From NCBI GenBank assembly GCA_946480445.1, contig CAMLJN010000001.1, positions 113,352-153,351 on the forward strand: DNA of 40,000 nucleotides, in the 5' to 3' direction. Below the pieces are notes generated by a model, which worked only from the letters and a program-made list of their open reading frames with translations, was not told where the DNA came from and made no database searches. Positions 18,970 through 37,618 of the stretch are shown here, in pieces. Every line of letters begins with the position of its first letter. Position 1 is the first letter of the stretch. The DNA is from an uncultured Buttiauxella sp. GTDB taxonomy: Bacteria; Pseudomonadota; Gammaproteobacteria; Enterobacterales; Enterobacteriaceae. Position numbers and translations under genes: made by a program.

Positions 18970-19154
18970 ATTTCTCTGAGATGTTTGCAAGCGGGCCAGT
19001 CCCCTGAGCCGATATTTCATACCACAAGAATGTGGTGCTCCACCGTCGGTGAGCATGCTCGGTCCGTCCGAGAAGCCTGATGACAGTGACGCTGCATTCA
19101 CCTTGAACCAAGGGTTCAAGGGTTACAGCCTGCGGCGGCATCTCGGAGATTCCC
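18970..19154 (+). ncRNA. ssrS: 6S RNA
   Basis: atttctctgagatgtt.gcaagcgggccagtcccctgagccgatatttcataccacaagaatgtgg ... ggttacagcctgcggcggcatctcggagattccc matches the E. coli 6S RNA sequence I recall, apart from the central variable region. It sits in the conserved zapA-ssrS-fau context. Confidence 0.93.
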
Positions 19155-23075: not shown

Positions 23076-23106
23076 AAAAAGCCCGCTTTCTAAGCGGGCT
23101 TTTATT
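23076..23106 (+). terminator. argP intrinsic terminator (copy 1 of a duplicated hairpin)
   Basis: caaaa-agcccgctt-tct-aagcgggct-tttt. An A-tract lies upstream and a T-tract downstream, immediately after the argP stop. Confidence 0.8.
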
Positions 23107-23242
23107 GCTAACAAAGAAGGAAAAAGCGTGGTTTTTCCTTCTTTGACGTTAGCTGCCGAAAATCAACAAATTGATTTTCCTTATTTTTTTATTGGGCGAT
23201 CTCTGCTTGTCCTGCATGAAGACAGGGCTCGCCATCAGTCTG
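23104..23242 (+). repeat. MITE-like intergenic unit, copy A (two-hairpin core 23111-23181 plus a less conserved tail)
   Basis: Hairpin 1 is caaagaaggaaaaa-gcgtgg-tttttccttctttg (23112-23145). Hairpin 2 is gaaaatcaa-caaa-ttgattttc (23158-23179). The unit is homologous to the reverse complement of 37452-37593. Confidence 0.7.
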
Positions 23243-23265
23243 AGCCCGCTTAAAAGCGGGCTTTT
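23243..23265 (+). terminator. second copy of the argP-type terminator hairpin
   Basis: agcccgctt-aa-aagcgggct-tttt is identical to 23080-23103 except for the loop. It is oriented for plus-strand termination and has no U-tract on the yggE strand. Confidence 0.6.
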
Positions 23266-24906: not shown

Positions 24907-25761
24907 TTATGCCGCGTCTTTTATACCTTTAAAATTAACATCCATCTGCGGGTAAGGAATGTTGATACCGTTGGCATCGAGCGCTTTCTTGATACGCTCC
25001 AGCACGTCCCAGTAAACGTTTTGCAGGTCACCGCTTTTACTCCAGGCACGCACCACGAAGTTAACGGAAGAAGGCCCCAGCTCATGCAGGCGTACCGTAA
25101 TTTCGCGATCTTTAAGGACAAGCTCGTGGCTGGTAACGATCTCGGTAAGGATCTGTTTCACCTGGTCGATATCAGCATCGTAAGCCACGCCAATAATAAA
25201 CTCGTTGCGACGAGCAGGCTCGCGGGAGAAGTTGATGATATTCCCGGCGATAATTTTACCGTTAGGCACCACCACGATTTTGCCATCTGCCGTGCGTAAA
25301 GTGGTGGAGAAGATCTGTACGTTTAACACGGTTCCCGCGATGCCGCCCAGGTCAACATATTCACCGGCGCGGAAAGGACGGAAGGTCACCAACAATACGC
25401 CAGCGGCGAGGTTAGAAAGCGACCCTTGCAGCGCAAGGCCAATCGCCAGACCGGCGGCACCAAGGACGGCAATCACCGACGCCGTTTGCACGCCTACCCG
25501 ACCCAGAGCGGCAATCAATGTAAAGGCAATAATCCCGTAGCGCACCAGCGCGGAGAGGAAATCAGCCACAGTTGCGTCAATCTGACGAGCCCGCATCACA
25601 CGATTAATACCGCCAGACACCATGCGGGCCACGATCATCCCGACAATCAGGATGGCAATCGCCGCCACAATGTTGACCGCATAGCTCAACAGTAAAGCCT
25701 GGTTGCGCACCAGCCAGCCCCCGGCATGATTAATACTGTCTACGACGTTTAGATCTTCCAT
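24907..25761 (-). CDS. mscS: small-conductance mechanosensitive channel MscS
   Basis: The 284-aa [37 protein letters not shown]... is collinear with E. coli MscS. Confidence 0.97.
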
Positions 25762-25885
25762 TCAACTATCCTTCTGCTTACCCATGCGGGCAAAAATAAA
25801 CCGTTCCCAAGGAGAAGGGCATGATTGTAAAGGGTAAACAAAAATAGTCATCTGTGCCAGGAATTCACCAGCCTGTCTGCGCTCA

Positions 25886-25914
25886 TAAAAAAGGCCGCTA
25901 AACGGCAGCGGCCT
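25886..25914 (-). terminator. intrinsic terminator of the tdc operon
   Basis: The minus strand reads aggccgctgccgtttagcggcct followed by tttttt, 18 nt after the tdcF stop. Confidence 0.8.
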
Positions 25915-25931
25915 CTGAGTGGGTCAGGAGG

Positions 25932-26327
25932 TTACCAGCAGTCCAGATGTGAGGCGATAGCCTCTATCTCAAGCTTCACGTCTTTGGGCAAGCGGGCGAC
26001 CTGCACACAGCTGCGGGCAGGATAGCTGGCTTCATGCTCATCGAAAAACTGCTTATAGGTCTGATTTATCGCCTCAAAATCTTTTAAATCGGTGACAAAC
26101 ACCGTCGTTTTGATGATGTTACCTACTTCCAGACCCGCAGCCTGAATGATGGCCTTCACGTTTTCCAGGCTTAAACGCGTTTGCTCGATCACCTTTTCAG
26201 GAATGACGCCCGTTTGCGGATCAACCGGTATTTGTCCTGATGTAAAGACCAGCTTGCCAAGATCGACACCCTGCACGTAAGGGCCAATAGCCCCCGGCGC
26301 CCTTTTCGTTTCGATAATATGACTCAT
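25932..26327 (-). CDS. tdcF: RidA-family enamine/imine deaminase TdcF
   Basis: The ATG at 26327 gives MSHIIETKRAPGAIGPYVQGVDLGKLVFTSGQIPV..., 131 aa, collinear with E. coli TdcF. Confidence 0.93.
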   Translation of the reverse strand: MSHIIETKRAPGAIGPYVQGVDLGKLVFTSGQIPVDPQTGVIPEKVIEQTRLSLENVKAIIQAAGLEVGNIIKTTVFVTDLKDFEAINQTYKQFFDEHEASYPARSCVQVARLPKDVKLEIEAIASHLDCW

Positions 26328-26340
26328 ATTGCCTCGCAAA

Positions 26341-28635
26341 TTAAATCGCCTGCGTGAAAGTACGGGAGATAACATCCTGCTGCTGCTCACGCGTTAACGC
26401 ATTGAAGCGAACCGCATAACCGGAGACGCGGATTGTCAGCGTCGGATACTTTTCCGGGTGCTCAATGGCATCCAGCAGCATCTCTTTGTTCATCACGTTG
26501 ACATTCAGATGCTGCCCGCCTTCGGTTTTCACATCGTGGTGGAAATAGCCGTCTAATAGCCCCACCAGATTGAGCTGGCGCACGGCATCCTCTCTCCCTA
26601 ATGCCGCAGGGACAATGGAGAAAGTGTAGGAAATACCGTCTTTTGCGTAGCTAAACGGCAGTTTTGCCACCGAGGTTAAAGAGGCCACCGCGCCTTTGCG
26701 ATCCCTGCCATGCATCGGGTTCGCACCCGGTGCAAAAGGTGTCCCGCCCCGACGGCCGTCCGGGGTGTTACCCGTTTTTTTGCCGTATACCACGTTCGAG
26801 GTGATCGTCAGGATCGACTGCGTAGGCACCGCATTGCGATAGGTTGGCAGCGCCTGGATCTTTTTCATAAAGCGCTCGACCAGATCGCAGGCAATCGCAT
26901 CGACGCGATCGTCGTTATTCCCGTACTGCGGATAATCACCCTCAATCACAAAATCTACGGCCAGCCCGGTATGATCGCGCACCGGTTTAACGGTGGCGTA
27001 TTTAATGGCGGAAAGTGAGTCAACGGCCACCGACAGCCCGGCAATCCCGCAGGCCATGGTGCGATAGACATCCCGGTCGTGCAGCGCCATCAGCGACGCC
27101 TCATAGCTGTATTTATCGTGCATATAGTGGATGAGGTTCAGCGCGGTGACATACTGCATCGCCAGCCAGTCCATAAAGTGGTCCAGGCTGTTCATGACCT
27201 TGTCGTAATCCAGCACTTCATCGAGCAGCATCGGCGTTTTTGGCCCGACCTGAATATTGAGCTTTTCATCCATCCCGCCGTTGATGCAATACAGCAGCGT
27301 TTTCGCGAGGTTTGCGCGGGCGCCAAAGAACTGCATTTGTTTGCCGATCACCATCGGGCTCACGCAGCAGGCTATTGCGTAGTCATCGCTGTTAAAGTCG
27401 CAGCGCATCAGATCGTCATTTTCATACTGCAACGACGAGGTTTCGATGGAAACTTTGGCCGCAAAGACTTTGAACGGCTTAGGCAAGGCTTCCGACCAGA
27501 GGATCGTTAAATTTGGCTCCGGTGCCGGCCCCATAGTGTAGAGCGTATTCAGGTAGCGGAAGGCGTTTTTGGTCACCAGCGTTCGCCCGTCCAGCCCCAT
27601 GCCGCCGATCACTTCCGTCGCCCAGATAGGATCGCCCGAGAAGAGCGAATCGAACTCCGGCGTACGCAGGAAGCGCACCATACGGATCTTCATGATGAAG
27701 TGATCGACCAGCTCCTGCGCCTGCTCTTCGGTCAGTAGCCCTGCCCGCAGATCGCGTTCAATGTAAATATCAATAAATGTCGTCGTGCGTCCCAGAGACA
27801 TCGCGCCGCCATTTTGCGATTTCACCGCGGCGAGATAGGCAAAATAGAGCCATTGCAGCGCTTCCTGGGCGTTACGCGCCGGGCGAGAAATATCAAAGCC
27901 GTAGCGGGCTGCCATTTCCTGAATTTGCAGCAGCGCCCTGCGATGCTCGGCAAGCTCCTCACGCAGTCGAATCACGGCATCCAGATTTTCTCCCCGCTCC
28001 AGCTGGCCTTGCAGGTCGGCAAACTGAAGTTCACGCTCGCGCACCAGATACGCAATACCGTACAGCGCCACGCGCCGGTAATCACCAATAATGCGTCCGC
28101 GGCCATAGCCATCAGGCAGACCGGTCAGCACGCCTGATTTACGGCAGCGCAGAATATCCGGAGAATAAACGTCGAAGACGCCCTGGTTGTGCGTCTTGCG
28201 CAGCGAAGTAAACTGATACTCAAACGCCGGATCCATCTCGCGACCATAAGCTTCAAACGAGCTTTTGATCATGTTGATACCGCCATAAGGGTGCAGAGCA
28301 CGCTTAAGCGGTTTATCCGTCTGCAGGCCGACAATCTTCTCGTGTGCTTTGATTATATAGCCCGGCGCGTGCGCGGTAATGGTGGTGGCAATATTCGTAT
28401 CGAAGTCCACCGGCGCATGGGTGGCGTTTTCAAGACGAATGCCCTCCATCACTTTTTCCCACAATGCGGTGGTCGCAGGCGTCGCGGTGGCTAAAAATGA
28501 CTCATCGCCGCAATAAGGCGTATAGTTATGCTGGATAAAATCCCGAACGTTAATGTCGTATTTCCATTCCTCACCGGAAAATTGCTGCCAGGCAAGAGAA
28601 TAATCTTCGTTGGTAATATCAATATCCACTTTCAT
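26341..28635 (-). CDS. tdcE: 2-ketobutyrate formate-lyase / pyruvate formate-lyase 4 (glycyl radical enzyme)
   Basis: The ATG at 28635 gives [19 protein letters not shown]..., 764 aa as in E. coli TdcE. The glycyl radical motif RVSGYAV lies near the C-terminus. Confidence 0.96.
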
Positions 28636-28665
28636 TACTTCTGTCCTCTGAACCACATTAATATT

Positions 28666-29874
28666 TCAGGCATATTCCGCGAGGCGGCATTCTTTCCCGA
28701 TATGCAGGGCATCAAGCGCAATCATTTTCTCTTCATTGGTGGGAATAACTGCGCAAACGACCGAGGAGTGAGCATCAGAAATTATTCTTTCCCCTACCCG
28801 GTTGCTCTGACTATTTTTGTCCCGATCGAGATAAATGCCAAAAACCCGCAGACGTTCAACCACCAGACGTCTGATAAGCTGCGAATTTTCGCCAATACCA
28901 CCGGTAAAAATAACGCCATCCAGACGTAATAACGCCGCCGCGTGTCCCCCAATCGTCCGGGCGATTCGGTGGACAAACGTATTAATAGCAAGCTGCGCGC
29001 GAGGCTCACCTTGATGCCAGGCTTTTTCCAGCGTCCTTAAATCTGACGATATGCCTGAAATCCCCAGCAGGCCAGATTCTTTATTCGCCACCTGTTCGAG
29101 ATCATCGAGTGATTGCCCCGTTTGTCGGGCAAGCCACGCCATGGCGCCAAAATCCACGTCGCCGCAGCGGGTGCCCATGATCAGACCTTCAAGCGGCGTC
29201 ATCCCCATCGACGTATCGACGCTCTTGCCGTTTTGCACCGCGCAAACGGAAGCACCATTGCCTAAGTGAGCAATCACCAACCCTGAATGTTCCGCGCAAA
29301 GGCCAAGCAAATCATTGGCACGCTGCGCCACATAGCGATGCGACGTGCCGTGGAAGCCATAGCGACGCACGCCGTAGTCTTCGAAGTAGCGGTAGGGTAA
29401 ACCGTACAGATACGCCTCCGGTTTTAATGTCTGATGAAAGCTGGTATCAAACACGGCTACCTGAGGGACATGCGGAAAACGCGCGCGTGCGGATTCAACG
29501 CCGCTTAAATTGGCGTAGTTATGCAGCGGTGCCAGAGGCGATACCTGCCGGATCTGTTCGATGACCTGGTCGGTAATTAAAACTGACTCTTTAAATACCT
29601 CACCGCCATGTGCTATGCGGTGTCCAATAAAAGCCACGCTGGCCATTAAGTCTCTTTTCTCAAGCTCAATGGAAAGCGCATTCAGTGCATCTTCATAATT
29701 TGGCTGAGCCAGTTTAACTGGCTCACCCTCATTAATGGTTAAATATGCGACCTCAGTATTAATACCTTCACAAATACCCGCCAAAAGCACATCGCAGGTT
29801 TGGACATCCAGAACTGAGAACTTAACAGAAGAAGATCCACAGTTTATCGTTAATACTACAGGGTAGTCATTCAT
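28666..29874 (-). CDS. tdcD: propionate kinase
   Basis: The 402-aa [26 protein letters not shown]... belongs to the acetate/propionate kinase family. It has the same length as E. coli TdcD. Confidence 0.95.
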
Positions 29875-29911
29875 ATCTAAATCTCATTCATCCTGAGCCA
29901 GCCCGGGAAAA

Positions 29912-31243
29912 TTAAAATAACTTGTAGACAATATTAAGAATGGTTAACACACCAATGACGGTGACAAAAATATTTTCCGTGCGTCCTTTATATTTCGCTA
30001 AGGCCGGCACTTTACGAATCGCGTACATCGGGAGCAGGCAAAGCAGCGAGGCGATAATTGGCGCGCCCATCGCTTCAATCAAATCCAGAATGTTCGGGTT
30101 AGCGTAGGCGACAATCCAGGTCGATCCCATGATGAAAGCCATGCTAATGAGGTTTAGCTTCCCGCCGGAAACACGGGTTTTATCGCCCTGGTAACCAAAC
30201 TTAAGAATCAGACCATTAAGCCCTTCCAGCGTCCCGAGATAGTGACCAAAGAAGGATTTGAAGATGGCGACCAGCGCGATTATTGATGCGCCGTATTCGA
30301 GGATAGTGGCAAAGGTCGATTTCGAACCGGACATCGACGAGAAATGGTTAGCCAGATAGGAAAGCACCGGGATGTTCTGCGCTTTTGCCTCGGCCATGTT
30401 TTGCGGAGAAAGCGTAAACAGGCAGCTGAAGGCGAAAAACATCACTACGGCCACCATCAACATGCTGGCACGGGAGATAATCTTTGAGACTTTGTTCTCG
30501 GTGTAGGCTTTGCCAAATTCTCCCTCGTACTCTTCACGCTTGGACACCACGAATGACGATACGATTGGCGAGAAGTTAAACGAGAACACCATAATAGAAA
30601 TGCCCAACCAGACCGTAACCAGAATACCGTCGTGACCGGTAAAGGAGAGATCGCTGAGGCTGACCTGATCGATAACCGCGGAGTTCCAGTAAGGGATCAG
30701 CGACAGCGAGATCAGCACCAGACAGGCGATAAAAGGAAACACCAGATAGCTCATGACCTTGACCATCAGATCCTTACCGAAGAAGATCACAAAGGCCATC
30801 AGCAGGAGTAAAAAGAGCGCCACAAAACCCCGGTTCAGGGGCATTAGCTGCAGCTGATTTTCCCAGAAGGTCATAAAGGTGTTGGTAATGGTCACGCCGT
30901 AAATCCACAGCAGCGGGCAAATCGCAAAAAAGTACAGGAAGGTGATGACCACCCCGCCGGTTTTACCGAAATGCTCTTCCACCGTTTCAGTAATGTTTCC
31001 TGAAGGGTTGCTGCCGGACAGACAAAGACGCGCCAGGGCGCGGTGGCAGTAAAACGCTATCGGAAAGGCCAGAAACAGCATAATTAAAATTGGAATTAAG
31101 CCGCCGTAACCTGCACGAATGGGGAAGAACAATACCCCGGCGCCGATAGCTGTACCAAACAGACCGAGCGTCCAGGTGGTGTCTGATTTACGCCACAGCG
31201 ACGTCTCTTTCTGACCAACGAGTGTTGCATCTGTATTGCTCAT
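29912..31243 (-). CDS. tdcC: threonine/serine:H+ symporter
   Basis: The 443-aa ORF is highly similar to E. coli TdcC ([29 protein letters not shown]...). Confidence 0.96.
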
Positions 31244-31267
31244 AATATAGGTCCTTAAGTAATTAGC

Positions 31268-32257
31268 TTAAATTTCCACAGAGCCGGTAATTTGCGAGAC
31301 GCGCGAAAGGTCGATATTCCCGCCGGAGATAATACTTACCGTTTTACGGCCTTTAATATAGCTATCAAGTTTGCCACTCAGTAAAGCCGCGGTGGCCAGA
31401 GCGCCAGCACCTTCCGTCACCACTTTATTACGCTGAATGAGCGCCACCATGCTGTTTCTGATCTCTTCTTCACTGACCAAAATAATATCAGTCACCAGAT
31501 CCCTGACGATGTCGAAAGTGATTTTTCCCGGACGTGAAACATCACAACCGTCTGCCAACGTACCCGCCGTACGATGCGATATTAATTCTCCGGCATGGAA
31601 TGATGCGGCCATGCCGTGCACATTCTCAGCCTGCACGCCAATAATATTAATCGTCGGATTGATGGATTTAATCGCCAGCGCGACACCGGCAATTAAACCA
31701 CCGCCGCCGATTGGCACAATAACGTTATCGACATCATATAAATCCTCCAGGATCTCCAGCCCGATAGTGCCCTGCCCGGCAATCACTTTTTCATCATCAT
31801 AAGGGGGAATAAAGATGCGCCCTTCCGTTTCGACAATTTCGCTGACCTTTGCAATGGTATCGTTGAAGTTATCCCCGTGCAGCACGACCTGGGCTGAGTA
31901 ATCCATGGTTGCCGCGACCTTGGACTTAGGTGCCCCTTTGGGCATCACAACCAGACCGTCAATCCCCAGAATGGCACAGGAGAGCGAAACGCCCTGCGCG
32001 TGGTTACCCGCAGAACAGGCTACCACGCCCTTTCTTTTTTCTGCTTCGCTTAACGAGCTGAGCTTGTTAAATGCGCCACGAATTTTAAAGGAGCCGGTGC
32101 GCTGCATATTTTCAAATTTCAAAAATATCTCACCCTTGCAGCATTCACTGAGATAGTTAGAGCGCGGCATCCCTGTTTTATAAATATAACCAGCCAGTCT
32201 TTTTTTAGCTTCCAGAATATCCTCAATGGTAACCGGAAGTTCATAATCAATATGCAT
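31268..32257 (-). CDS. tdcB: catabolic (biodegradative) threonine dehydratase
   Basis: The 329-aa ORF has the PLP-lysine motif TGSFKIRGA. It is collinear with E. coli TdcB. Confidence 0.96.
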
Positions 32258-32357
32258 GTTGACCTCGGTGTTAAAACAATAAGCAATAAAGGGGGGGGCA
32301 AATTATTTTTATTTGCCGTTAGCATTCATTTAAATATATTTAAAGCCAATTATTAAA

Positions 32358-33296
32358 TTAAGCGACTCTGGTAAGCTTGTTAAACTTATATTGGCTGCGT
32401 ACCGAATGTTTTTTAGCCAGTTCGACCAGGGTCGCGGCAGATCTTTTAATACAATAATTTTTCGACCATGCCGCCGCATAACGAGCAACGGGTAATTTAT
32501 CTTCTACCGGAACTTTACAAAACTGACTGGAGCCAAAGGGAGAAATCATATCGCCTGGAATAACCGTCAGAAATCCTGCATTCAGCACCAGGTTATAAAT
32601 GGTGACCACCGAGTCCGTTTTAATGATATTTTCACTGTTGATATTATTCTTTTGTAACGTGGTAAGCAGCTCGCTGTAATATCCCATCTCGGTATGTGGT
32701 AGCACCCACTGCTCGTGGCTTAGGGCGCTGAGCGTTGTCGTACCGCCGCAGGATCGCGTTCGGCTGGCGACCAGAATAAATTCGGACTCAAACAGCGGCT
32801 CAATATGCAGATCCTGGAGCAGCATTTCATCGCTAAGCGTGCCGATGGCAAAATCCAGCCGCCCATCGCGAATCGCAGGTAAGAATGAAGAAAGCTGCGC
32901 TTCGAACATCGAAACCTGCGCCTGGGGGAAAAGCTCCTTAAACTCTTTCATCATGTCCGGCAAAAAGGTGAAGCCAATTAATGAAGGGTAGCCAAAGGAG
33001 ACATCGACCACATCGTTCCCCACCATGCTGCTCATCTCGTTGCACATATTTCTTAACTCGCGGGTAATGGACTCCGAGTGGGTCAGCAATACCTTTCCTG
33101 CTTCCGTCAGCTTCACGCCCGTGTTCTTACGTATGATCAGCGCTAATCCAAAGTAGGTTTCCATATCGCTGATAATTTTACTGACCGCAGGCTGAGTTAA
33201 ACCAAGTTGTTTTGCCGCAGAGCCAAATGAACCGCTTCTGACGACTTCCAGGAAGACCATCAGATGCTGTGTTTTAGGTAACGTTGTATTGTCCAT
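32358..33296 (-). CDS. tdcA: LysR-family activator of the tdc operon
   Basis: The 312-aa ORF ...LPKTQHLMVFLEVVRSGSFGSAAKQLGLTQPAVSKII... is collinear with E. coli TdcA. It is the first gene of the operon. Confidence 0.93.
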   Translation of the reverse strand: MDNTTLPKTQHLMVFLEVVRSGSFGSAAKQLGLTQPAVSKIISDMETYFGLALIIRKNTGVKLTEAGKVLLTHSESITRELRNMCNEMSSMVGNDVVDVSFGYPSLIGFTFLPDMMKEFKELFPQAQVSMFEAQLSSFLPAIRDGRLDFAIGTLSDEMLLQDLHIEPLFESEFILVASRTRSCGGTTTLSALSHEQWVLPHTEMGYYSELLTTLQKNNINSENIIKTDSVVTIYNLVLNAGFLTVIPGDMISPFGSSQFCKVPVEDKLPVARYAAAWSKNYCIKRSAATLVELAKKHSVRSQYKFNKLTRVA

Positions 33297-33359
33297 GAAA
33301 CTTTGCGCCGATTTAATCTCCCATGCAGTGGATCATATCGAATTCGCAGTGGATTGTTA

Positions 33360-33375
33360 TGTGCAGTGACTCACA
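33360..33375 (-). promoter_or_regulatory. CRP site of a probable class II tdc promoter
   Basis: TGTGCagtgacTCACA matches the consensus core at 9 of 10 positions. A minus-strand TATGAT -10 hexamer lies at 33337-33332. That places the site centre about 42 nt upstream of the inferred transcription start. Confidence 0.55.
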
Positions 33376-33701
33376 ATTACCAGACGCCTGATGGCACACA
33401 AAGCAGGCATAACAATTAAAAACTATAAAAATCAAAAGGTTGACATTTTCCGATCTGCAGTTTACATGATTAAAGTCAACCTTGCGACAGGTAATAAATT
33501 AAATTTATGGTGATAATAAAATCATATCCATAGCAATAACTTATTGTATTTAAAATATTTTATTTTAATTAAAGAATATTTATCTGTGGTGATAAGCCAT
33601 GAAGCAGCTGCAACCCACAAAATAAAATAATTATGCATTATTTATAATTATTTTTTAATTCTGTCGTTCTTTATTTGCGCTATGGGTGCCCGGACAGACG
33701 T

Positions 33702-33726
33702 AAAAAAACCCGCACGAGGCGGGTTT
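33702..33726 (-). terminator. fbaA intrinsic terminator
   Basis: The minus strand reads aaacccgc-ctcgt-gcgggttt followed by ttttt, 26 nt after the fbaA stop. Confidence 0.85.
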
Positions 33727-37423: not shown

Positions 37424-37448
37424 AAAAAAAAGGTCGCTTTCGCGACCC
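37424..37448 (-). terminator. strong intrinsic terminator, probably the functional tktA terminator (distal copy of a duplicated hairpin)
   Basis: The minus strand reads ggtcgc-gaaa-gcgacc followed by T8 (A8 at 37424-37431 on the plus strand). Confidence 0.8.
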
Positions 37449-37451
37449 GTT

Positions 37452-37593
37452 CTGAATGATTTTTACTCTGACACAATCTTACGGCACAAATGTCGCCCTG
37501 ATTAATCAGGAAAATCAATTTTTTTGATTTTCGACAGCTCAATCACAATGAAGGAAAAACCACGTTTTTTCCTTCATTGTCTGTAGCATAACG
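37452..37593 (-). repeat. MITE-like intergenic unit, copy B (two-hairpin core 37508-37580)
   Basis: On the minus strand, hairpin 1 is acaatgaaggaaaaa-acgtgg-tttttccttcattgt (37545-37580). Hairpin 2 is gaaaatcaa-aaaaa-ttgattttc (37510-37532). It also has a perfect 14-bp palindrome CCTGATTAATCAGG (37497-37510). Confidence 0.7.
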
Positions 37594-37618
37594 GGTCGCT
37601 TTCGCGACCCGTTATGCT
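37585..37618 (-). other. 15-bp perfect hairpin directly 3' of tktA (proximal copy of the duplicated hairpin; no U-tract)
   Basis: agcataacgggtcgc-tttc-gcgacccgttatgct contains the same 20-mer ggtcgctttcgcgacccgtt found at 37432-37451. Confidence 0.7.

Follow-up and report, generated by a model that had tools for sequence, protein, structure and literature searches.

The hairpin modules downstream of argP and tktA in a Buttiauxella genome are very probably halves of a miniature YPAL-like transposable element that inserts at terminator hairpins

The window, by which I mean the whole 40,000-nucleotide stretch of DNA analysed here, has the enterobacterial gene order ssrS-rpiA-argP-yggE...fbaA-pgk-epd-tktA, with about 78–82% identity to E. 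coli and Klebsiella and about 85–90% to Scandinavium. Downstream of argP and of tktA lie two copies of a module made of two hairpins, one at 23111-23181 on the plus strand and the other as the reverse complement of 37508-37580, as described in an earlier note on this DNA. The comparison of the two copies made there is accurate. Hairpin 1 is identical at 32 of 35 positions; of the three differences, at positions 5, 16 and 32, the first and the last concern bases that are partners in the stem, an A-T pair in one copy being replaced by a compensatory T-A pair in the other. The stems of hairpin 2 (GAAAATCAA and TTGATTTTC) are the same in both copies, and the loops differ (CAAA versus AAAAA). Degenerate pattern searches find the module at two sites in the 40 kb, where 0.00 are expected (100 shuffles), and a repeat finder lists the two copies, as I1 and I21, as the top inverted pair of the window. 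Each hairpin folds far better than its own shuffles, whether as RNA or as DNA (z from -4.9 to -7.4).

The homology runs on, more weakly, beyond 23181 and 37508 into a second conserved block (about 23231-23242 and about 37452-37463). This extent had been missed: the homology reaches a second terminal repeat, and the unit is bracketed by a duplicated terminator hairpin. What the earlier note had taken for a self-contained folded-RNA unit is instead the left half of an element of about 140 bp that has terminal repeats and is flanked by target-site duplications. The features of the two copies, in the direction of the upstream gene, are the following.

Copy A, downstream of argP:
23080-23100, plus strand: argP-proximal terminator hairpin, left target-site duplication, AGCCCGCTTTCTAAGCGGGCT
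23101-23242, plus strand: copy A, the whole element of about 140 bp, 5' TTTATTGCTAACAAAG ... GCCATCAGTCTG 3'
23111-23145 (stem and loop 23112-23145), plus strand: hairpin 1, ACAAAGAAGGAAAAAGCGTGGTTTTTCCTTCTTTG, 14-bp stem, loop GCGTGG
23158-23179, plus strand: hairpin 2, palindrome GAAAATCAA-CAAA-TTGATTTTC
23180-23242, plus strand: variable 3' half, a T-rich tract and then subfamily-specific sequence
23231-23242, plus strand: right terminal inverted repeat, GCCATCAGTCTG
23243-23265 (hairpin 23243-23262), plus strand: distal argP hairpin and T-run, right target-site duplication, AGCCCGCTTAAAAGCGGGCTTTT

Copy B, downstream of tktA:
37589-37612, minus strand: tktA-proximal terminator hairpin, AACGGGTCGCGAAAGCGACCCGTT, no T-run after it, -12.1 kcal/mol
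37452-37588, minus strand: copy B, the whole element, nhmmer match with E 4e-21
37546-37580, minus strand: hairpin 1, ACAATGAAGGAAAAAACGTGGTTTTTCCTTCATTG (reverse complement), with the compensatory T-A pair
37510-37532, minus strand: hairpin 2, with a 5-nt loop
37424-37451 (hairpin 37431-37451), minus strand: distal tktA hairpin followed by T8, called as a terminator, GGGTCGCGAAAGCGACCT TTTTTTTGTT

Copy A aligns end to end with 96 other copies and is 87% identical to the family consensus in its 5' half and 67% in its 3' half; the first three bases of its left terminal repeat are degenerate. In copy B both terminal repeats are eroded and the corresponding identities are 76% and 41%. By these alignments copy A has remained fairly intact, whereas copy B is older and degenerate. 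In copy A, hairpin 1 (-12.6 kcal/mol as DNA, -16.9 as RNA) has an outer 5' arm that overlaps the inner portion of the left terminal repeat. The CAATG/CATTG variant of hairpin 1 found in copy B is also present in another locus (L020).

The hairpins that bracket each unit are GC-rich and locus-specific, AGCCCGC...GCGGGCT at argP and ACGGGTCGC...GCGACC(CGT) at tktA. The two argP hairpins, 23080-23100 and 23243-23262, are the same except for the loop; with its A and T tracts (23076-23103) the proximal one folds at -13.9 kcal/mol as DNA. A consensus terminator scan did not call this proximal hairpin (plus strand) despite its 9-bp stem followed by TTTATTGC/TTTTATTG, a negative that was taken as uninformative. 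Around copy B, the scan did not call the tktA-proximal hairpin at 37589-37612, and the distal hairpin is the sole canonical intrinsic terminator of that pair.

A copy count, which the earlier note had proposed, reveals a genuine repeat family with many further copies outside the window. A pattern scan of species-representative genomes yielded at least 119 loci, about 115 of them true copies, in at least 14 genera of Enterobacterales. Among the matches listed, the hosts include Scandinavium, Dryocola, Buttiauxella, Cedecea, Mangrovibacter, Entomohabitans and Intestinirhabdus, and further Citrobacter, Enterobacter, Serratia, Providencia, Morganella and Rosenbergiella; five of the listed loci are chance matches, in unrelated phyla or inside coding sequence. 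Single genomes hold at least 19 loci (Scandinavium sp. SGZ-S8) or at least 11 (Dryocola clanedunensis). The loci were sampled by an exact pattern, made of the hairpin 1 loop and the hairpin 2 5' arm, so that the conservation of these two segments is overstated. BLAST against annotated records added copies after glgS in Klebsiella aerogenes, chaC in K. pneumoniae and proA in Providencia, each lying between duplicated, locus-specific hairpins. A search of 5,426 complete E. coli genomes gave no copy, nor did one of the phage collection. Carriage of the family by plasmids was considered and rejected, all "plasmid" matches being chromosomal fragments: PLSDB records filed as Klebsiella plasmids (CP125156.1, of 5.37 Mb, LR134124.1, NZ_CP079141.1 and others) carry argP, tktA, chaA-chaC and hldE-glgS and are evidently chromosomes or fragments of chromosomes.

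The copy alignment gives the family consensus CAGATTGCTGACAAAGAAGGAAAAAGCGTGGTTTTTCCTTCTTTGTGGTTATCAGCCGAAAATCAATAAATTGATTTTCCTTGTTTTTTATT...GGTTTGTCATCAGTCTC. Copy length is uniform, 141 nt in 53 copies and 140 nt in 28, with a range of 137–143 nt. From left to right the element consists of a terminal repeat, the subterminal hairpin 1 (14–16 bp), the AT-rich palindrome of hairpin 2 and a variable right half. The terminal inverted repeats are imperfect (CAGAYTGCTGAC...GTCAKCAGTCTS), end-to-end complementarity amounting to 77% over 97 copies. The left 90 nt are strongly conserved; the right 50 nt vary among genus-specific subfamilies, which points to amplification within lineages, and conservation is low in alignment columns 95–135. 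The right half contains no conserved third hairpin and no conserved fold (median z -0.47). No conserved open reading frame was found in the element, and most copies have a hairpin 2 loop (TAAA or TGAA) that supplies a stop codon in a frame that is otherwise open across the conserved half. Sigma-70-like promoter sites are absent from both regions of the window; with neither such a site nor a conserved reading frame, the idea that the element is a promoter or a gene of its own was dropped.

The duplication of the flanking hairpin is a property of the family. When the 45 nt upstream of each copy were aligned with the 45 nt downstream, 85 of 99 copies scored at least 12 (median 20), as against 8 of 494 in a control that paired flanks across different loci (maximum 14). 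The same control indicates that the flanking GC-rich palindromes differ from locus to locus and do not form a repeated family. Flanks on both sides fold with a median of -15 kcal/mol per 32 nt, random 32-mers with -4.25. Forty-eight copies have an exact duplication 0–2 nt from the ends of the element; these duplications measure 17–30 bp (median 21) and mostly begin with A and finish with T. Thirty-three of the 48 are a complete palindrome with no unpaired base at the edge, and in 43 the asymmetry is at most 1 nt. Two loci contain tandem hairpin-element-hairpin-element-hairpin arrays (L022, 5633-5933, and L061, 7408-7708, both on the minus strand), as results from a second insertion into a hairpin duplicated by the first. 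The element thus inserts at the base of GC-rich palindromes, mostly Rho-independent terminators just past stop codons, and the whole palindrome is duplicated. A long duplication is absent from 14 of the 99 copies, some of which have duplications of 4–6 bp beside a single hairpin. In L106, L114, L007 and L011 (Mangrovibacter) the hairpin is on the left only and the duplication is short (ACCT, GAGCCT) or not recognisable; these may be insertions beside the palindrome rather than across it, and may hint at the intrinsic stagger of the enzyme.

The preference for sites right after terminator hairpins is shared with retroelements that target terminators, for instance bacterial class C group II introns, and the element might be what remains of one. 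Class C introns, however, insert without duplicating the hairpin, and neither the inverted-repeat ends nor the uniform full-length copies of 140 nt would be expected of such a remnant; together with the absence of any match to an Rfam intron domain, this leaves the idea scarcely credible. ERIC/IRU was rejected as well: that repeat has a 127-bp consensus, duplicates TA and occurs in E. coli, from which the family is absent, and the family's duplications are of 17–30 bp.

[quoted passage not shown] So is presence or absence at orthologous sites, between genera only. In K. pneumoniae and Lelliottia, the spacers between argP and yggE and between tktA and epd have a single terminator hairpin and no element; these empty sites are cross-genus, and their hairpins have sequences other than those at the filled sites, so that none of them is an exact pre-insertion site. 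The single chaC copy of K. pneumoniae is filled in 7 of 7 records. On this evidence the two modules of the window are, with high probability, the conserved left halves of two independently inserted, non-autonomous transposable elements of about 140 bp.

With respect to genes, 96 of 108 copies lie at most 150 nt from a stop codon (counting reading frames of 120 codons or more), with a median of 35 nt between stop and element. The earlier note had observed that both copies of the window have the same orientation relative to the preceding gene. That regularity does not extend to the family: 41 of the 108 copies follow a co-oriented gene only, 19 follow a gene of the opposite strand only, 36 lie between convergent genes and 12 are unclassified, some of these because the adjacent gene is small (e.g. 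glgS). With 41 sense and 19 antisense copies, co-orientation is a 2:1 tendency and no rule.

The suggestion that selection acts on a folded structure was put to a covariation test, as proposed in the earlier note. It is supported for hairpin 1, which covaries; hairpin 2 shows no covariation. In the 97-copy alignment, 98.5% of the hairpin 1 cells, and 98.8% of those of both helices together, are paired. Well beyond the single pair of copies in the window, hairpin 1 pairing is kept by compensatory changes throughout the family: they occur at six pairs and produce 53 double-change cells, where column shuffles give 6.5 ± 2.3 and 0 of 500 attain the observed number, and sliding the partners by 1–3 columns leaves far fewer of them. 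The pair types imply about 11 or more independent events. Column pair 18:43, for example, changes from A-T to C-G, G-C or T-A, the K. pneumoniae copy has a fourfold change, and a C-G pair is replaced by A-T throughout the Mangrovibacter subfamily. The Mangrovibacter change falls within the inner portion of the left terminal repeat; the base that compensates for it lies in the 3' arm of hairpin 1 and not in the right-hand repeat. A helix between the two terminal repeats has no covariation above shuffles in the same alignment, and a whole-element helix formed by pairing of these repeats was discarded. Since only hairpin 1 covaries, the Mangrovibacter change included, the terminal repeats behave as sequence signals and hairpin 1 as a structure. 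Pairing in hairpin 1 is under selection, probably because mobilisation depends on the structure.

Hairpin 2 is of another kind. Among the pattern-sampled copies it is invariant and without covariation, and since the search pattern prescribed its 5' arm this invariance is neutral with regard to pairing. Among loci recovered by nhmmer, with no requirement for the pattern, one has a broken hairpin 2 stem (L077) and another, a weak and divergent match (L031, E 9e-05), has a one-base deletion matched in both arms. The palindrome also resembles a binding site for IHF, whose consensus we take to be WATCAANNNNTTR: 92–93 of 97 copies match it on both strands, the WATCAA part being fixed by the search pattern. 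Copy A matches on both strands but copy B does not, because its 5-nt loop destroys the spacing of the consensus. Hairpin 2 reads at least as well as a double IHF consensus site, and would more probably be a protein-binding site of this type than a hairpin in RNA; its variable loop is equally expected under both readings.

Compensatory change in hairpin 1 is also what one would expect of a cis-acting structured RNA (one that stabilises a 3'-UTR, a processing site or an sRNA derived from a 3'-UTR) selected by the host at each locus, which is close to the view of the earlier note. The position of the copies directly after stop codons suits such an RNA too, as does the great stability of the two whole regions when folded as RNA (z -8.0 and -8.6). 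The mixed orientation (41 sense-only against 19 antisense-only copies) does not, nor does the unconstrained 3' half. Neither a promoter-like site nor an Rfam family is found: the module matches none, as the note had proposed to check, and the best sub-threshold match, to STnc370, reaches 31.8 bits where 54 are needed and is driven by the generic terminator hairpin. Rfam at the gathering score returned 6S RNA only for the window (ssrS, 18970-19153, plus strand, 129.6 bits), and E-value thresholds added generic hairpins only. Above all, a structured RNA leaves the terminal inverted repeats, the duplications of locus-specific hairpins and the tandem insertions unexplained. An effect at the RNA level is compatible with a MITE as a secondary consequence, but cannot explain how the copies arose; as a primary explanation I consider it unlikely. 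The data on hairpin 1 fit a role in propagation as well as a benefit to the RNA at each locus, but the former is favoured because the covariation separates whole subfamilies, that is, master copies.

Subterminal hairpins under structural selection, and palindromic targets, bring to mind a third kind of element, one that depends on hairpins in single-stranded DNA and is of REP/RAYT or IS200/IS605-derived (PATE) type. Members of those families have no terminal inverted repeats, make no target-site duplications and use a short, specific tetra- or pentanucleotide target, whereas here both the repeats and long duplications are present. With no GTAG or CGTC tag and no BIME-like clusters either, a derivation of this sort is highly improbable. 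REP/BIME proper, with 20–40 bp GC-rich units, a GTAG/CGTC tag and alternating clusters, was likewise set aside, the unit of the family being 140 nt long, AT-rich and furnished with terminal repeats and duplications.

Pairs of terminal repeats 0.2–4 kb apart in about 1 Mb of fetched flanks enclose no open reading frame and represent only chance pairs or adjacent MITEs. These flanks contain neither an autonomous partner nor a transposase; mobilisation would take place in trans. A solo hairpin 1 fragment in L064 was considered as a partner and turned out to be a truncated remnant between ordinary genes.

The Yersinia palindromic sequences, YPAL or RU-2, are said to have been described by De Gregorio et al. 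in 2006 (J Bacteriol 188:7876), and Delihas discussed them in 2007 and 2008. Their ends are like those of the present family: YPAL runs from CAGACTGCTGACAAA to TTTGTCAATAACCTC and the family from CAGAYTGCTGACAAA to TTTGTCATCAGTCTC, with 14 of the first 15 nt in common. In the RU-2/YPAL sequence of Y. pestis that Delihas printed, the 5' end reads ttCAGACTGCTGACAAA and the 3' end TTTGTCAATAACCTCA. According to the Delihas review, YPAL has target duplications of 3–26 bp that span or adjoin dyad symmetries, and a comparison of Y. pestis with Y. pseudotuberculosis shows both filled and empty sites. A YPAL copy of Y. pseudotuberculosis is found between two copies of AAAAGGATGGCCCAAGCCATCCTT, a 24-bp hairpin duplication with a T-run after the second, and a YPAL-like element on the E. 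coli IncN plasmid NZ_CP058883.1 (L128, 2480-2690), 75% identical to Y. pestis RU-2, lies between CAGGGGC...GCCCCTG hairpins. The arrangement of duplicated hairpins in these YPAL copies (L127 and L128) is that of the present family, and the two groups also have in common variable duplications over dyad symmetries or terminators and a location just 3' of stop codons. The YPAL-like element also occurs on about 15 similar conjugative plasmids of Klebsiella and Citrobacter, and conjugative plasmids are a possible route for the spread of the YPAL group between genera.

The resemblance is confined to ends and targets. YPAL is 167–168 nt long and the family about 140 nt; their cores cannot be aligned, and a global alignment matches the ends only. 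YPAL is one long GC-rich palindrome without an IHF consensus, whereas the family has two short AT-rich hairpins on the left, one of them with such a consensus, and an unstructured right half. Their host ranges differ, and BLAST with a YPAL query returns copies of YPAL and none of the family. Core motifs of the family were not found in a de novo library of Yersinia repeats (supplement of PMC2847712), and searches of the literature with core strings gave only unrelated primer matches and no paper that prints or names the core. The same library (all_repeats.fa) contains a Yersinia repeat of about 110 nt, kristensenii2 (count=50), that ends CTTTGTCAGCAGTCTGA; since this is the terminus of YPAL and of the present family, several unrelated cores share one pair of ends. 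Another entry in that file, labelled 'matches YPAL', begins TATACCC... and looks like ERIC. By its termini and its hairpin duplication the family is a sister of YPAL within the YPAL-type MITE group, and so an element of a known kind; it is widespread and, it appears, unnamed and undescribed. The earlier note had recognised no catalogued repeat, which is right with respect to REP/BIME and ERIC/IRU; it had left YPAL/RU-2 unchecked, however, and termini and target behaviour are those of YPAL/RU-2. No later literature naming a transposase for YPAL was found, and none is known for the family either.

YPAL is co-expressed with upstream genes, and YPAL-positive transcripts accumulate, with a possible effect on the stability of the upstream transcript (Delihas review); these observations lend the structured-RNA reading some further support. 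Other small dispersed repeats are similar in part. Correia/NEMIS of Neisseria and ERIC/IRU are non-coding, intergenic, bounded by terminal inverted repeats and co-transcribed with their neighbours, and Correia in its long form has an IHF site, as the family may. They differ in that TA is duplicated at a fixed stagger, in that hairpins are neither targeted nor duplicated, and in having no sequence similarity to the family. IS1397/ISKpn1 and other REP-targeting insertion sequences likewise use extragenic palindromes as insertion targets; unlike the family, they are autonomous, insert in or beside the palindrome and make short duplications of fixed length, not of the whole hairpin (Tobes and Pareja 2006, PMC1525189).

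How, then, might a MITE come to duplicate an entire terminator? A transposase acting in trans would recognise the terminal repeats and attack both strands at the base of a hairpin extruded as a cruciform, where the sites that flank the palindrome come close together. A small intrinsic stagger (4–6 bp at the insertions that do not span a palindrome, 3 bp for YPAL) would then correspond, along the sequence, to a duplication of hairpin length, and a stagger at the foot of the cruciform would thus explain duplications ranging from 4–6 bp to 30 bp. I infer cruciform targeting solely from the geometry of the duplications, which is what is observed. IHF may have an architectural role at hairpin 2. 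The gene-proximal hairpin would lose most of its T-run; transcription would run on across the element as far as the distal hairpin and end there, making the element a highly structured 3'-UTR, as reported for YPAL. Copy B fits such read-through in that its distal hairpin is the one called as a terminator. At copy A read-through is uncertain because the proximal hairpin keeps a TTTT tail.

An attractive but speculative and, on balance, doubtful extension is that the family and YPAL are two payloads of one structure-specific transposition system of the Enterobacterales, for which DNA hairpins would be the signal at the donor and at the target alike, and which would rewrite the 3' ends of genes. 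Hairpin 1, kept by compensatory evolution, would then be the signal at the donor end. The terminator cruciform would be cut symmetrically at its foot, so that DNA structure rather than a fixed stagger of the enzyme would determine the length of the duplication, and gene 3' ends would acquire a duplicated terminator together with an inserted structured 3'-UTR carrying an IHF site.

For annotation, the MITE reading means that blocks of about 160 nt 3' of many genes in Scandinavium, Dryocola, Mangrovibacter, Buttiauxella, Cedecea, Serratia, Providencia, Morganella and Klebsiella are insertions of a mobile element rather than sRNA genes or motifs resembling riboswitches, and that the tandem terminators at such loci are scars of transposition. 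An insertion swaps a simple terminator for a hairpin, 140 structured nucleotides and a hairpin with a T-run, which may alter mRNA stability or read-through. The roughly 100 clean insertions offer an unusually sharp view of target duplications of palindrome length, a signature of structure-directed integration. The more interesting question is which enzyme carries out hairpin-directed integration for both YPAL and the present family; because two unrelated cores share one pair of ends, it should be easier to find.

The fbaA gene gives a further example of an occupied and an unoccupied target.

33702-33726, minus strand: fbaA terminator of the window, AAACCCGCctcgtGCGGGTTT and T-run, a single, unoccupied hairpin

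In Scandinavium sp. SGZ-S8 (L090), where the flanking gene is 90% identical to that of the window, an element lies after fbaA between two copies of AAGCCCGCtaaataGCGGGCTT. Serratia montpellierensis (L113) also has a copy after fbaA, between duplicated hairpins of a different sequence. The Scandinavium sequence downstream of fbaA (the right flank of L090) matches positions 25536-25761 of the window, about 8 kb away, so that the window seems to hold, at about 25760-33700, some 8 kb that are absent from Scandinavium at this place. The fbaA-proximal edge of this segment (33380-33690) is strikingly AT-rich.
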